NCBI GenBank assembly: GCA_964609155.1
Contig: CAZSRF010000001.1
Coordinates: 19,166 to 83,165, forward strand
Length of the DNA stretch: 64,000 nt
Direction: 5' to 3'
Source: an uncultured Gammaproteobacteria bacterium
GTDB lineage: Bacteria > Pseudomonadota > Gammaproteobacteria > JAGOUU01
The position numbers were made by a program, and so were the translations under genes. Shown in pieces: positions 450 to 52,302 of the stretch. How positions within the stretch are numbered: position 1 is the stretch's first letter; every line of letters starts with the position of its first letter. The notes beneath the pieces are model-generated. The model made no database searches and was not told the origin of the DNA. It saw only the letters and a list, made by a program, of their open reading frames with translations.

Positions 450-737
450 ATCACTTGGCACATGAGAAAGCTTTGGGCAGTCCCGATTAAATTTGTCATG
501 TTGGACAAGCTATAAGATACCGGCTCTTCGGCTGGTATAACAAACTTTTGCTTAGTTCTGATTATAAATATTATTATTCGTTTGTTATTTTGTTGTTCCT
601 GCTATATAACTCTATATAGATTTATTAATTATATTCTGCATAGCTGGATGTAACCTTTAAATCATAGATTAAGTCAAGATTATGTATCATTGAACTACAC
701 AACCGGATAGGTTGAAAATTTCTCATGGAGGAGAAAT

Positions 738-7678: not shown

Positions 7679-8983
7679 CTAGTGAACTTTAAAAAAACCT
7701 ACTTTTACCTTGTCTCCATCAATATAATACATATCAAACGTTTCTGGATAACCTTCGTGCCCAGCTCCCATACGTGCCTTATCCCAAACTTTATCAGCGA
7801 CAAGAGTAGACTTTTCACCCATAAATTGCGCCTTATTCAATTTATACATAAATACTTTTGAGTTACTTAGAATAGAAAGCATCTGCTCTTCCAGAGCAGT
7901 TTCATCTTCTGCACCCGTATCTGAGTCCGAATCAGAATCATCCATCGCTGACTCAGTGAACACATAGTAGTTATCATCTTTAGTATAAACAGCAGCAAAC
8001 TTTTGGTCATTAACCTTTAGATCAATAAAATTCCAGTTTAATCCATCATCAAAACTTATCAGATATGTCTCTTTTTCTATATGTTTCTCATCAACAAATT
8101 TATAATATTCAGCATTAGCTAATAGAAAACCCTTACTTTCTTTAACGCTTAAAAAAGATAGATCCAACTCATATTCGATGCCATCATTTATAGTTTTCAG
8201 AACTGTTGGAACATTCATTTCAACTAATTTAGCATCTGCATCCAATAAATCTTTTATATAAAAATTCTGTTTCATTTGATTATTCAAAAAATCATACTTA
8301 GTAAGTATAACTTTACTATCAAAAGCAGTTCTATAAGTGTATTCAGAAAATTCTGCAAGAGAGTGCCATTGCTGTCCGTTGTCTTTAGAAAACATTTTCT
8401 TTAAGATACCATTTTCACCTTTAACATCAGCAAGTATAATCCTTGGCGTTACCTCAGTAATGGAATCGAGTTCAAGCTCGCCAGTTGAGCTCAAAGAGTA
8501 TGGATGCCAATTGACTCCATCCGTAGATGTGTAATTAAATGAATGATCTTCAAAGTTCGGACCTGACTTCTCAAACTTCAATGTTAAAAAAAGAATATCA
8601 TTATTATTGTTAATATATGTCTCATACCAGCTATAATCGTTAGGCAAACTTGGAAGAACAATCTGGCTAGTATGTTTCTCATAACTTTGATAATCTGCAT
8701 TAAAAACTATTGTATTAATATTCACCGTTCTATCAACAGGATTTAATGTGGAAGACATCATATGTTCACGCCCTTTAAAATAAAAGCTCTCCATTGATGA
8801 GTTTTTATCTTCTTTAGAATGGACTATATCAAAATCAAAATACTTGTATTCTGCTACTTTTTGCACCTCTGGACTGATATTTTTAATATGAATCTTTTTA
8901 CCCGCAAAAATAAAACTCGAAAAAATTAAATTTAATATAGCTACAATTATAATACAATTTATTTTATTATCCCTGTACAGCAT
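7679..8983 (-). CDS. secreted BNR/Asp-box repeat protein (sialidase/Ycf48-like beta-propeller)
   Basis: It has a signal peptide and several Asp-box motifs (STDGVNW, SKDNGQQW, FDDGLNW), plus an acidic DDSDSDSD stretch. Confidence 0.55.
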   Translation of the reverse strand: MLYRDNKINCIIIVAILNLIFSSFIFAGKKIHIKNISPEVQKVAEYKYFDFDIVHSKEDKNSSMESFYFKGREHMMSSTLNPVDRTVNINTIVFNADYQSYEKHTSQIVLPSLPNDYSWYETYINNNNDILFLTLKFEKSGPNFEDHSFNYTSTDGVNWHPYSLSSTGELELDSITEVTPRIILADVKGENGILKKMFSKDNGQQWHSLAEFSEYTYRTAFDSKVILTKYDFLNNQMKQNFYIKDLLDADAKLVEMNVPTVLKTINDGIEYELDLSFLSVKESKGFLLANAEYYKFVDEKHIEKETYLISFDDGLNWNFIDLKVNDQKFAAVYTKDDNYYVFTESAMDDSDSDSDTGAEDETALEEQMLSILSNSKVFMYKLNKAQFMGEKSTLVADKVWDKARMGAGHEGYPETFDMYYIDGDKVKVGFFKVH

Positions 8984-9038
8984 ACTCTCCCCTCTATGAA
9001 AAATTTAGATTCAAAGCGGTATTATATGCAACTTTATA

Positions 9039-9160
9039 GGACTTACGCAAGAACCCTGTCATACCGGCCAAAGAGCCAGTATCTTGCAAAAAAGATCTCG
9101 GTTCTGCGCACTTCGTGCTTGACCGAGATGACAACTTACAATCATTTTGCGTAAGTCCTG
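9039..9160. repeat. 122-bp MITE-like repeat, copy 1 (terminal inverted repeats GGACTTACGCAA...TTGCGTAAGTCC)
   Basis: It is about 85% identical to 52142..52263. Both have 12-14 bp terminal inverted repeats and an internal palindrome (ATCTCGGTTCTGCGCAC...GACCGAGAT). Confidence 0.75.
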
Positions 9161-9273
9161 CTTTAATGAGACATTACAAGTAACAACTATAAGATCCAGA
9201 CCAATAGCAAACATGTTTATTTATCTTAGGTAATTGGGATAATTTGGGAATGATTTTGGATGACTGCTGTCTT

Positions 9274-9388
9274 GCGGAACTTAAATTGTCTAATTGATAA
9301 TTTAAGTTCCGCAACGATATTAAGATTTTTTTGAACTTAAATTGTCTAATTGATAGTTTAAGTTCCGCAACGATATTAAGATTTTTTT
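9274..9388. repeat. tandem duplication of a ~57-bp palindromic hairpin unit
   Basis: Unit: gcggaacttaaattgtctaattgataatttaagttccgc + aacgatattaagattttttt. The second copy has one mismatch, and its T-run contains the helicase stop codon. Confidence 0.8.
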
Positions 9389-11529
9389 CTAGGCTTAAGC
9401 TTCAACACACGCCCTTTATCTCTAGGCTTGCTATCAGCATTGCTTTTTTTCGAACTTGATTTAGGCTTACCTGCTCTTACTTTATCATTGCTAATAAATT
9501 TAGCTGGTCTTTCAGATCTACCTTCAGATCGCTCGCTTCTACCTCTTGATGGTCGCTCTGATCTGCCACTTTCAAAACGCTCACCTCTTGCGGTCCGTGG
9601 TTTATCAAACGATCTACCGCCTTCTGCTCTCTCACTCCTACCCTTTCCAGATCTTTCAAATGATCTGCCATTTTCTGATCTTTCACCTCTTGCTGCTCGC
9701 GGTTTATCAAATGATCTACCGCCTTCTGATCTCTCACTTCTACCCCTTCCAGATCTTTCAAATGCTCTGCCATTTTCTGATCTTTCACCTCTTGCTGCTC
9801 GCGGTTTATCAAATGATCTACCGCCTTCTGATCTTTCACCTCTTGCTGCTCGGGGTTTATCAAACGATCTACCGCCTTCTGATCTTTCGCCTCTTGCTGC
9901 TCGCGGTTTATCAAACGATCTACCGCTTTCTGATCTTTCACTTCTACCTCTTCCAGAGCCTGATCTATCTGATCTACCGCCTTCAGATCTACCAAAACTA
10001 TTTCCTCTTGGACCACCTGATCTTCTAGAACGATCACCTCCATTACGGCTATCTCGGTCTCTACCAGAGCTATTACCATAATTAGATCTTTGAGAATTCG
10101 ACATATCTAAGCTTTTTAAATTATCTGATTCTGAAAGTAATAATGGAGCATCGCCATAAGCCATAACAGCGACTGCTGCTGCTATCTTGTTCACGCTGTG
10201 ATCAGATTCACCAGCAATTTGATTAATTACAGTAGCCATGGCTTCTAATTTTTCCTGCTTATTAATCTTCTCTTCACTAGCTTTAATAATATTTAATACA
10301 CGTGATTTAAAAAACTGTATACGCTTTTCATTGATTTCAGCTACTGTAGGCATAACATATTTTTCTATAGTAGTTTTAGTGAAGCGTTCTATATATCTCA
10401 GCTTGCTTGTCTCACCTCTAGTAGCAAAAGAAATAGCTACACCACTACGACCAGCACGACCAGTGCGCCCTATTCTGTGCAAATAGGTTTCTTCATCATG
10501 CGGCATATCATAGTTTATAACATGAGTTATTCTGTCGACATCTAAACCACGTGCAGCGACATCTGTAGCTATTAATATATCTATTCTACCAGCTTTAAGT
10601 TCTTTTATAGAACGCTCACGCATTTTTTGCTCAATATCACCATTTAATACAATTGCTCGGTGCCCTGCAGCAAGTAACTGTTCTCCAATAGTAATCGTCT
10701 CAAGCTTTGTGCGTGCAAAAACTATCATTGCATCCATACCATCATGCTTACTAATTTCTAAGATACGAAGCAAAGCATCAATTTTATCTGAATAATTAAC
10801 ACCCCAATAATATTGCGAAATCAAACTGCTGGTTTCATGTTTAGGCTCAATATTAACTTTTACAGGATCTTTTAAGTATTTACCGGCAATATTCTTAATA
10901 GCAGAGGGCATTGTTGCTGAAAATAAAGCTATTTGCTTGTTTTCAGAAGAGCGTTCTAAGATCAAATTTACATCATCAATAAATCCCATGCGCAACATTT
11001 CATCTGCTTCATCAAGTACTAGAATATCTAATTTAGATATATCTAATGTTCCACGCTCAATATGGTCAATAATTCTTCCCGGGGTTCCAACAACGATATG
11101 ACTGCCCTGCTTTAATTGTTTTAATTGAGTACGATAATCTTGCCCCCCACAGAGAGTAGCAATAACTAAATCTTTTATCTTGCTAGAATATTTACGAAAA
11201 GAATCTGCAACTTGAATAGCTAATTCCCGCGTTGGCGCTAAAATCAAAGCCTGAGGAATACAGTCCTCATCTTTATAAGAAATTCTGACTTTAGACAAAA
11301 TAGGCAATGCAAACGCAGCTGTTTTACCTGTGCCCGTTTGTGCTTGTCCAATTACATCATGTCCCTCACACAACACAGGTATAATTTCTGCTTGAATTGG
11401 AGTCGGTTTTTCATAGCCTATTTCATGAAGAGCTTGAATTACTTGCTGGCTGAGCGGCAAATCAACAAAGTTCACATTAGCAGAATTAACGATTTGGGCA
11501 GAATCTTTTGACTTGGTTGAGCGACTCAT
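9376..11529 (-). CDS. deaD: DEAD-box ATP-dependent RNA helicase (DeaD/CsdA-like) with long repetitive Arg/Ser/Gly-rich C-terminal tail
   Basis: Motifs GQAQTGTGKT (Walker A), DEAD, SAT, HRIGRTGRAG and the Q-motif region are present. The tail has about 8 copies of the 17-aa unit GRSFDKPRAARGERSEG. Confidence 0.85.
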   Translation of the reverse strand: MSRSTKSKDSAQIVNSANVNFVDLPLSQQVIQALHEIGYEKPTPIQAEIIPVLCEGHDVIGQAQTGTGKTAAFALPILSKVRISYKDEDCIPQALILAPTRELAIQVADSFRKYSSKIKDLVIATLCGGQDYRTQLKQLKQGSHIVVGTPGRIIDHIERGTLDISKLDILVLDEADEMLRMGFIDDVNLILERSSENKQIALFSATMPSAIKNIAGKYLKDPVKVNIEPKHETSSLISQYYWGVNYSDKIDALLRILEISKHDGMDAMIVFARTKLETITIGEQLLAAGHRAIVLNGDIEQKMRERSIKELKAGRIDILIATDVAARGLDVDRITHVINYDMPHDEETYLHRIGRTGRAGRSGVAISFATRGETSKLRYIERFTKTTIEKYVMPTVAEINEKRIQFFKSRVLNIIKASEEKINKQEKLEAMATVINQIAGESDHSVNKIAAAVAVMAYGDAPLLLSESDNLKSLDMSNSQRSNYGNSSGRDRDSRNGGDRSRRSGGPRGNSFGRSEGGRSDRSGSGRGRSERSESGRSFDKPRAARGERSEGGRSFDKPRAARGERSEGGRSFDKPRAARGERSENGRAFERSGRGRSERSEGGRSFDKPRAARGERSENGRSFERSGKGRSERAEGGRSFDKPRTARGERFESGRSERPSRGRSERSEGRSERPAKFISNDKVRAGKPKSSSKKSNADSKPRDKGRVLKLKPRKKS
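9530..9960 (-). repeat. intragenic 51-bp tandem repeats (x~8) encoding the helicase C-terminal tail
   Basis: The DNA unit recurs as ...tcaaatgatctaccgccttctgatctttcacctcttgctgctcgcggtttat... The high identity between copies suggests recent expansion or contraction. Confidence 0.8.
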
Positions 11530-11741: not shown

Positions 11742-11942
11742 GGTGTTATTCTGTGCTACACGAAAGAAGTCAACGTTTTTTGAGCTATAAGCTTTGATAG
11801 GGGTTTGGCGTGAGTGTATCGTTGTGCACGACTGCCTATAAATCTTATTTATAGAATGTAGTAAGCCTGAGCATACAACCGATGAGTCCCACCTGGAAGA
11901 CAGGTTCAAGGCGAGTACTTCTACGGTAATATGGGTAACACC
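11742..11942 (+). ncRNA. ssrS: 6S RNA (SsrS) candidate
   Basis: It lies immediately upstream of the 5-formyl-THF cyclo-ligase gene, as in the conserved zapA-ssrS-ygfA arrangement. The 3' half contains ccacctggaagacaggttcaagg, resembling E. coli 6S CACCUUGAACCAAGGGUUCAAGG. The ends (ggtgtta...gaagt / acttc...taacacc) can form the closing stem. Boundaries are approximate. Confidence 0.55.
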
Positions 11943-13795: not shown

Positions 13796-13868
13796 GGGCC
13801 TATAGCTCAGTTGGTAGAGCAGGAGACTCTTAATCTCTTGGTCGAAGGTTCGAGTCCTTCTGGGCCCA
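13796..13868 (+). tRNA. tRNA-Lys (anticodon CTT)
   Basis: A cloverleaf folds by eye: acceptor GGGCCTA/TGGGCCC, D-arm GCTC-AGTTGGT-AGAGC, anticodon stem GGAGA/TCTCT with loop CTCTTAA, T-arm GAAGG-TTCGAGT-CCTTC. CCA is not encoded. Confidence 0.7.
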
Positions 13869-28851: not shown

Positions 28852-28927
28852 GGCCTGATAGCTCAGTCGGTAGAGCAAAGGACTGAAAATCCTTGTGTCG
28901 GTGGTTCGATTCCACCTCAGGCCACCA
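28852..28927 (+). tRNA. tRNA-Phe (anticodon GAA)
   Basis: GCCTGATAGCTCAGTCGGTAGAGCAAAGGACTGAAAATCCTTGTGTCGGTGGTTCGATTCCACCTCAGGCCACCA matches the E. coli tRNA-Phe pattern. CCA is encoded. Confidence 0.9.
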
Positions 28928-51971: not shown

Positions 51972-52141
51972 CAGAAACAAATCTCTCTTTTATTTGTTTA
52001 GTTACTTACGTTTTATTTGAGGCTAAATAGTAAATGCGGTGAATAAAATGAATAAAAATAAATCATATTCTATACCCAATTTGTACCTATTTATACCAGA
52101 GATAATAATTAAGCGTGATAAAATATTGTAATATACAGTCA

Positions 52142-52263
52142 GGACTTACGCAAAAAACCTGTCATACTAGCCGAAGAACCGGTATCTTACAAAACAGATT
52201 TCGGTTCTGCGCACTGAGTGCTTGACCGATATGACAACTTAGGATCATTCTGCGTAAGTCCTG
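52142..52263. repeat. 122-bp MITE-like repeat, copy 2
   Basis: It is a paralogue of 9039..9160 with the same terminal inverted repeats. It sits in the divergent etfB / ETF-QO promoter region. Confidence 0.75.
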
Positions 52264-52302
52264 ACAGTCTTAACATGAATGTTAGAAAATTAGGTTACTT
52301 AT

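Follow-up and report, generated by a model that had tools for sequence, protein, structure and literature searches.

The window, a 64-kb stretch of DNA from an uncultured gammaproteobacterium that was analysed as a whole, contains two short and closely similar repeats. A first-pass annotation treated them as one 122-bp family with terminal inverted repeats, and offered two descriptions, a non-autonomous mobile element or a REP/RPE-like structured repeat. The first question addressed here is whether the repeats are discrete elements that were inserted where they now lie. The second question is which family of transposase would be able to move them.

Copies of the repeat in the window

Both annotated copies proved real, but each starts 2 bp further left, which makes the element 124 bp long, and a third copy had been missed. 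The 64-kb window holds in total two intact copies, A and B, and one decayed copy, C (Table 1). Identity between A and B, annotated as about 85%, was 106/122 (87%) in an ungapped comparison of 9039-9160 with 52142-52263, and 107/124 shared positions (86%) over the full elements. The flanks of A and B, compared over 50-200 bp on either side, were 22-31% identical, which is the random level.

The terminal inverted repeats of A and B are 13 bp each (YAGGACTTACGCA / TGCGTAAGTCCTR), with outer ends TAGGAC...GTCCTG in copy A and CAGGAC...GTCCTG in copy B. The window has four occurrences of the 11-mer GGACTTACGCA, one per end per copy, against 0.40 expected. Perfect terminal repeats of 12-14 bp had been annotated. 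This stands for copy B with 13 bp, CAGGACTTACGCA, but copy B ends in CTGCGTAAGTCC and not in TTGCGTAAGTCC. The internal palindrome ATCTCGGT...ACCGAGAT, annotated in both copies, is without mismatch in A and has a single one in B. Target-site duplications, which the annotation proposed to look for, are present: perfect 5-bp direct repeats bracket both copies, CTTTA at copy A and ACAGT at copy B. Copy C has lost its right end, and mutation has changed its left end to CAGAACTAAGCA. It retains the first hairpin at 84-90% identity over 30-37 nt and has a 28-bp internal deletion.

Table 1. Positions of the repeat copies and of their parts in the window.
Feature	Position	Strand	Description
MITE copy A	9037..9160	+	124 bp, TAGGACTTACGCA...TGCGTAAGTCCTG
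MITE copy B	52140..52263	+	124 bp, CAGGACTTACGCA...TGCGTAAGTCCTG
Decayed copy C	about 486..560	-	boundaries approximate
Copy A left terminal inverted repeat	9037..9049	+	TAGGACTTACGCA
Copy A right terminal inverted repeat	9148..9160	-	CAGGACTTACGCA read on minus strand
Copy A left target-site duplication	9032..9036	.	CTTTA
Copy A right target-site duplication	9161..9165	.	CTTTA
Copy B left target-site duplication	52135..52139	.	ACAGT
Copy B right target-site duplication	52264..52268	.	ACAGT
Copy A internal palindrome	9095..9129	.	ATCTCGGT...ACCGAGAT, inner GCAC/GTGC stem (fold)
Copy A second hairpin	9061-9082		ATACCGGC...GCCAGTAT (fold)

A Logan contig from the window's own genome (L121) starts inside copy B, at the equivalent of window position 52236, 28 bp from the right end. 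Assemblies typically break this way at multi-copy repeats.

Genomic setting

ORF positions confirmed the annotation that both copies are intergenic and that B lies between etfB and ETF-QO. Copy A is located between the stop of a DEAD-box helicase ORF (9376) and the start (8983) of the ORF at 7679-8983, both on the minus strand. Copy B occupies the divergent etfB/ETF-QO spacer, 39 bp upstream of the ETF-QO ATG (52303). A and B are oppositely oriented relative to their adjacent genes. The ETF-QO of the window is 75% identical to a protein from a MAG named 'Gammaproteobacteria bacterium' and ~58% identical to Legionella proteins.

The 434-aa ORF at 7679-8983, which adjoins copy A, has a homologue in a close relative alone, in the protein collection searched. 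In the relative L253 (514-1796) this ORF is split into pieces of 185 and 239 aa, and the counterpart is probably a pseudogene. At 9277-9388, overlapping the helicase stop, a 56-bp unit is present in tandem duplicate (98% identical). A palindrome of ~38 nt (GCGGAACTTAAA...TTTAAGTTCCGC) lies in each unit, and L253 has a single unit at this place. Recent duplication of a terminator-like hairpin may account for this arrangement. The C-terminal tail of the 717-aa helicase ORF (9559-10008) consists of 51-bp (17-aa) tandem repeats that are RSEGGRSFDKPRAARGE-like and rich in Arg, Gly, Ser and Glu. The window also contains a 6S RNA at 11745-11941 (47.8 bits, just over the cut-off of 46.4) and tRNA genes at 13796-13868 and 28852-28924.

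RNA structure and the ETF-QO leader

The annotation had also proposed that the element be folded. Both of its strands gave strong folds (z = -5.4 to -6.9), as a palindromic element should. With the fold of either copy and on either strand, the comparison of A with B gave 4-5 broken pairs and 0 compensatory changes. The window copies had no Rfam match at gathering score, and at E≤1 the only match was at chance level, with 18 bits where the cut-off is 35 (E=0.21). Nor did Rfam match the same-ended elements at 18 other loci, described below. The Poribacteria RNA motif was considered as an identity for these elements and ruled out, as there were no Rfam matches. Spurious ORFs of ≤52 aa are all that overlaps the 124-bp element; it has no coding capacity, and its RNA structure is not under selection.

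These results bear on the idea that the element has been domesticated as a regulatory module or small-RNA gene, that is, a MITE-derived leader or promoter controlling ETF-QO/etfBA and the gene adjoining copy A. The short distance between copy B and the ETF-QO start favors it. The only sigma-70-like match in the empty etfB/ETF-QO spacer of a relative is upstream of the insertion point, so copy B may lie in the ETF-QO leader, and could perhaps be transcribed within or just upstream of that 5' leader. The element end and the duplication together form CTGACA, a -35-like hexamer, and MITEs are known to act in this manner in Neisseria and Coxiella. Against this, promoter-like and terminator-like matches were at or below shuffle expectation, and the hybrid -35 site would yield an almost leaderless transcript. 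There was neither an Rfam match nor covariation, and the insertions are absent from close relatives, which makes them recent and not conserved. We consider domestication unlikely. Any regulatory effect of copy B would be a by-product of its insertion.

Empty sites in relatives

Two public read-set assemblies, L249 and L250, contain an ETF-QO with 94% amino-acid identity to that of the window, and the 3-kb flanks on each side of copy B are ~93% identical between them and the window at the nucleotide level. Both assemblies have an empty site, GTAATAT-ATAGT-CTTAACAT, where the filled site of the window reads GTAATAT-ACAGT-(124 bp)-ACAGT-CTTAACAT. What the window has in addition is precisely the element together with one 5-mer. 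For copy A, an L253 contig spans the site, from the last part of the helicase gene to the first part of the ORF that follows. After removal of 9037-9165 the window aligns with L253 straight through the junction, ...CATTAAAG followed by T..., and the empty site has a single TAAAG (minus strand), equivalent to one CTTTA.

The annotation had named one outcome that would speak against a discrete element, namely copies embedded in a larger segmental duplication. With filled and empty sites at both copies, and flanks identical only at the random level, segmental duplication is excluded. A wider form of this explanation, in which the copies are either duplicated segments or independent deletion remnants of full-length ISs, could draw on the fact that two intact copies only are visible, and on ISPlag1, an IS known to leave 197-bp remnants (PMC2464740). 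We regard it as highly improbable, since the flanks show no relationship even next to the duplications and the relatives lack exactly 124 + 5 bp. Both copies also have the same boundaries and the same 98-bp interior, which independent deletions would not give.

Because the copies are missing from close relatives, the insertions are recent and not conserved. A and B differ from each other by 14%, which is more than the ~8-9% intergenic divergence from relatives without the copies, and they probably arose from source copies that had already diverged. This divergence and the decayed copy C point to a family with some history in the lineage.

At ~395-435, some 30 bp away from the copy A empty site, L253 has 41 additional bp (CAGGACTTAATTCTACGCACTTTTGTGCTTGGCCTAATTTT). 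This stretch opens like an inverted-repeat end and contains GTGCTTGGCC, which resembles GTGCTTGACC in the element interior. It may be a fossil of the window MITE family in this relative.

Terminal repeats of IS701-family insertion sequences

A full-text search for the end sequence returned one relevant paper, on ISPlag1 of Planktothrix agardhii, a 1306-bp IS with one 337-aa transposase related to the IS701 group (PMC2464740, Christiansen 2008). The published terminal repeat, CAGGACTTACGCAAGCACGCTATATATAG, begins with CAGGACTTACGCAAGCACGC (PMC2464740), and was used to recover ISPlag1 copies from Planktothrix plasmids. With the ISPlag1 protein as query, ISAba11, the pAba70f IS of A. baumannii and a Nodularia IS were obtained. 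Full-length copies of all four ISs (4/4) carry YAGGACTTACGCA at both termini. The ISAba11 copy in L246 is 1101 bp long and has a 5-bp target duplication, CATAT. Against the NCBIfam model NF049921 ('IS701 family transposase', cut-off 250 bits) the four transposases scored 354-418 bits, and the ISPlag1 transposase also matches Pfam DDE_5 and DDE_Tnp_1. The ISPlag1 and ISAba11 transposases are only ~30% identical. More distant relatives, from Piscirickettsia, have different ends. HHEK was rejected as a universal mark of ISs with these ends; ISAba11 alone has the motif, and the ISPlag1 type has x-R-E-K.

ISAba11, an Acinetobacter element of the IS701 family, was reportedly described by Moffatt in 2011 and Rieck in 2012, and the latter is said to have found the inverted repeats highly conserved within the ISAba11 family. 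Transposition of ISAba11 has been reported in laboratory selections (review PMC9771954). ISAba11 resembles the window element in having identical 13-bp ends (TAGGACTTACGCA) and a 5-bp duplication. It is autonomous, with a 342-aa transposase containing H-x2-H-x3-E-x6-K, whereas the window element is geneless and has no sequence in common with ISAba11 beyond the 13 bp. ISPlag1 shares the terminal start CAGGACTTACGCA, and its 197-bp remnants are, like the window copies, non-autonomous derivatives bounded by the same inverted repeats. However, ISPlag1 has inverted repeats of 29-48 bp, a cyanobacterial host and an unrelated interior, and the published account has its remnants arise by deletion at a single locus and does not present them as a dispersed family.

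Other sources were compared in the same way. IS630 generates a TA target duplication, while IS200/IS605 elements have neither inverted repeats nor a duplication, and are characterized by subterminal hairpins and a fixed target motif. The annotation had suggested a partner from one of these two families. An IS630-derived MITE was rejected because the 5-bp duplications are CTTTA and ACAGT and not TA, and an IS200/IS605-derived element because the window element has inverted-repeat ends and 5-bp duplications of variable sequence. The ends and the 5-bp duplications fit instead the ISAba11/ISPlag1 clade of IS701. The classical MITEs Correia/NEMIS, RUP, ERIC, MITEAba12, Coxiella QMITE1/2 and Nezha are, like the window element, short, non-coding and intergenic, with inverted-repeat ends, target duplications and a folded transcript, but they come from other source IS families and have other duplication lengths. 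The Correia duplication is TA and that of MITEAba12 is 9 bp. Coxiella QMITE1 and QMITE2 were rejected on direct repeats of 2-3 nt and 7-11 nt, respectively, compared with 5 bp here. Nezha, a cyanobacterial MITE with the inverted repeats of ISNpu3, was rejected on the 10-bp direct repeat CATTATCTAC of the Nezha reference copy (PMC6042816).

The same evidence bears on the second description in the annotation. The ends of the window element are those of DDE insertion sequences, and REP/RAYT repeats are not known to have inverted-repeat ends or target duplications. We give hardly any credence to a REP/RPE-like extragenic palindrome, spread by RAYT (IS200/IS605-like Y1) or recombination and retained because it acts in mRNA stability or termination: strong folding on both strands and an intergenic position in an AT-rich, perhaps host-associated genome, where such repeats are common, are in its favor, but the 13-bp ends, 5-bp target duplications and exact empty sites contradict it, the element is 124 bp long compared with 20-40 bp for REP units, the published superfamilies take their definition from a tetranucleotide, GTAG or CGTC, at one end (PMC3733652) whereas the ends here are YAGG, pairs are broken between the copies with no compensation, and the copies face opposite ways relative to neighboring genes.

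Taken together, terminal inverted repeats, 5-bp duplications, empty sites and IS-identical ends identify the repeats as MITEs, and the reading of the annotation as a non-autonomous mobile element is upheld. The ends are identical to those of the ISs, the insertions are exact, each is flanked by a 5-bp duplication, and the copies are dispersed in unrelated flanks. Since the ends are those of autonomous ISs of the ISAba11/ISPlag1 clade, the window elements are non-autonomous derivatives of that clade. It is very likely that the 124-bp repeats are MITEs that carry only the terminal recognition sequence of this IS701 clade, YAGGACTTACGCA, inverted at the two ends.

The search for a cognate transposase that the annotation had proposed gave a family, IS701 (NF049921), but tblastn found no IS701-family transposase in the 64-kb window. 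With no transposase gene in the window, we infer action in trans: the element is probably mobilised by an IS701-family transposase of the ISAba11/ISPlag1 clade, and this genome would have, or would formerly have had, such a partner. In the proposed mechanism, a DDE transposase of the clade, encoded elsewhere, would bind both 13-bp ends and would excise or copy the element. Insertion would take place in AT-rich DNA at a 5-bp staggered cut, and repair of the cut would leave the 5-bp direct repeats.

Same-ended short elements in other genomes

One genome per species, 596 Gb in all, was scanned for GGACTTACGCA-N85-115-TGCGTAAGTCC. The scan found >120 stretches, which is a lower bound, while ~1 is expected by chance in 596 Gb by our own arithmetic. 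Among the matches listed, the same-ended elements were 107-137 bp long. Classified by record title, the matches listed included ~61 cyanobacterial loci, 34 from Poribacteria, 7 from Chloroflexota, 3 from Methanosarcina and 3 from Gammaproteobacteria, with 2 further matches each from Acidobacteriota, Bacteroidota and Moduliflexus, and 1 each from Parcubacteria and 'Deltaproteobacteria'. Interiors were unrelated across lineages, and the 127 elements among the matches listed fell into 57 clusters, one of which comprised copies A and B of the window alone.

For the duplication test the ends were read as YA-GGAC...GTCC-TR. Perfect, AT-rich 5-bp flanking repeats were found at offset 2 in 91/126 elements among the matches listed. 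All other combinations of offset and length gave fewer, save the 3-bp subset of the same repeats (96/126 at offset 3).

The outermost base is a pyrimidine on the left and a purine on the right, with T/G in 37, C/A in 31, T/A in 28 and C/G in 27 elements (L001-L120 plus the window). The two outermost bases vary independently, which makes position 1 of the end degenerate (Y); the invariance of positions 2-13 follows from the search design.

The same-ended MITEs elsewhere are like those of the window in their ends, their length of 107-137 bp, their AT-rich 5-bp duplications and their strong self-complementarity. One cyanobacterial cluster differs from the window family in that the Nodularia-type IS repeat is visibly continued in it (ACTGGCAC...); for the window family no parent with an extended IS repeat is known. 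The interior of the window element had no similarity to the 125 other same-ended elements, and no match in JGI metagenomes (two exact-pattern scans) or plasmids (blastn). The listed 120 genome loci and 120 viral loci contained no full-length IS, and end pairs 1-4 kb apart enclose ordinary genes. Solitary ends in these same 120 + 120 loci had no adjoining transposase.

Within L116 (Oscillatoria sp. SIO1A7), positions 278-1185 hold a frameshifted fragment of an ISPlag1-like transposase, 52-66% identical and spread over several frames. The locus also holds a same-ended MITE, and the fragment is the sole one of its kind among the listed loci.

Significance of the family

The window family is a new sequence family of an ordinary and well-known kind, the IS-derived MITE, and it reveals no new mechanism. 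Two intergenic repeats of this genome are explained as recent insertions. Copy B lies immediately upstream of ETF-QO, beside an operon for fatty-acid and branched-chain catabolism. Sites that are filled here and empty in relatives can serve directly as markers that tell strains apart. Many phyla have an abundance of short elements with these ends, a finding of use in annotating repeats and in interpreting assembly breaks. The parent IS of the window family would be 1.1-1.4 kb long, with YAGGACTTACGCA ends that continue as subterminal AGAACCCTGTCAT / AAATGATTGTAAGTTGTCAT.

One 13-bp end is common to many unrelated MITE families across phyla, and its reach may be broader than has been appreciated. 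The shared end agrees with the reported conservation of inverted repeats in the ISAba11 family. A more general proposal, on which we are evenly divided, is that the 13-bp end YAGGACTTACGCA is a near-universal handle that suffices for IS701 transposases of the ISAba11/ISPlag1 clade despite their ~30% identity, and that through it MITEs have arisen again and again in Bacteria and Archaea from dozens of unrelated sequences of 100-140 bp. It would span Cyanobacteria, Poribacteria, Chloroflexota, Methanosarcina, Parcubacteria and this uncultured gammaproteobacterium. If it is true, the window family would be a previously unrecorded branch of this superfamily, and cross-mobilisation would be possible by any member of the clade that arrives on a plasmid.
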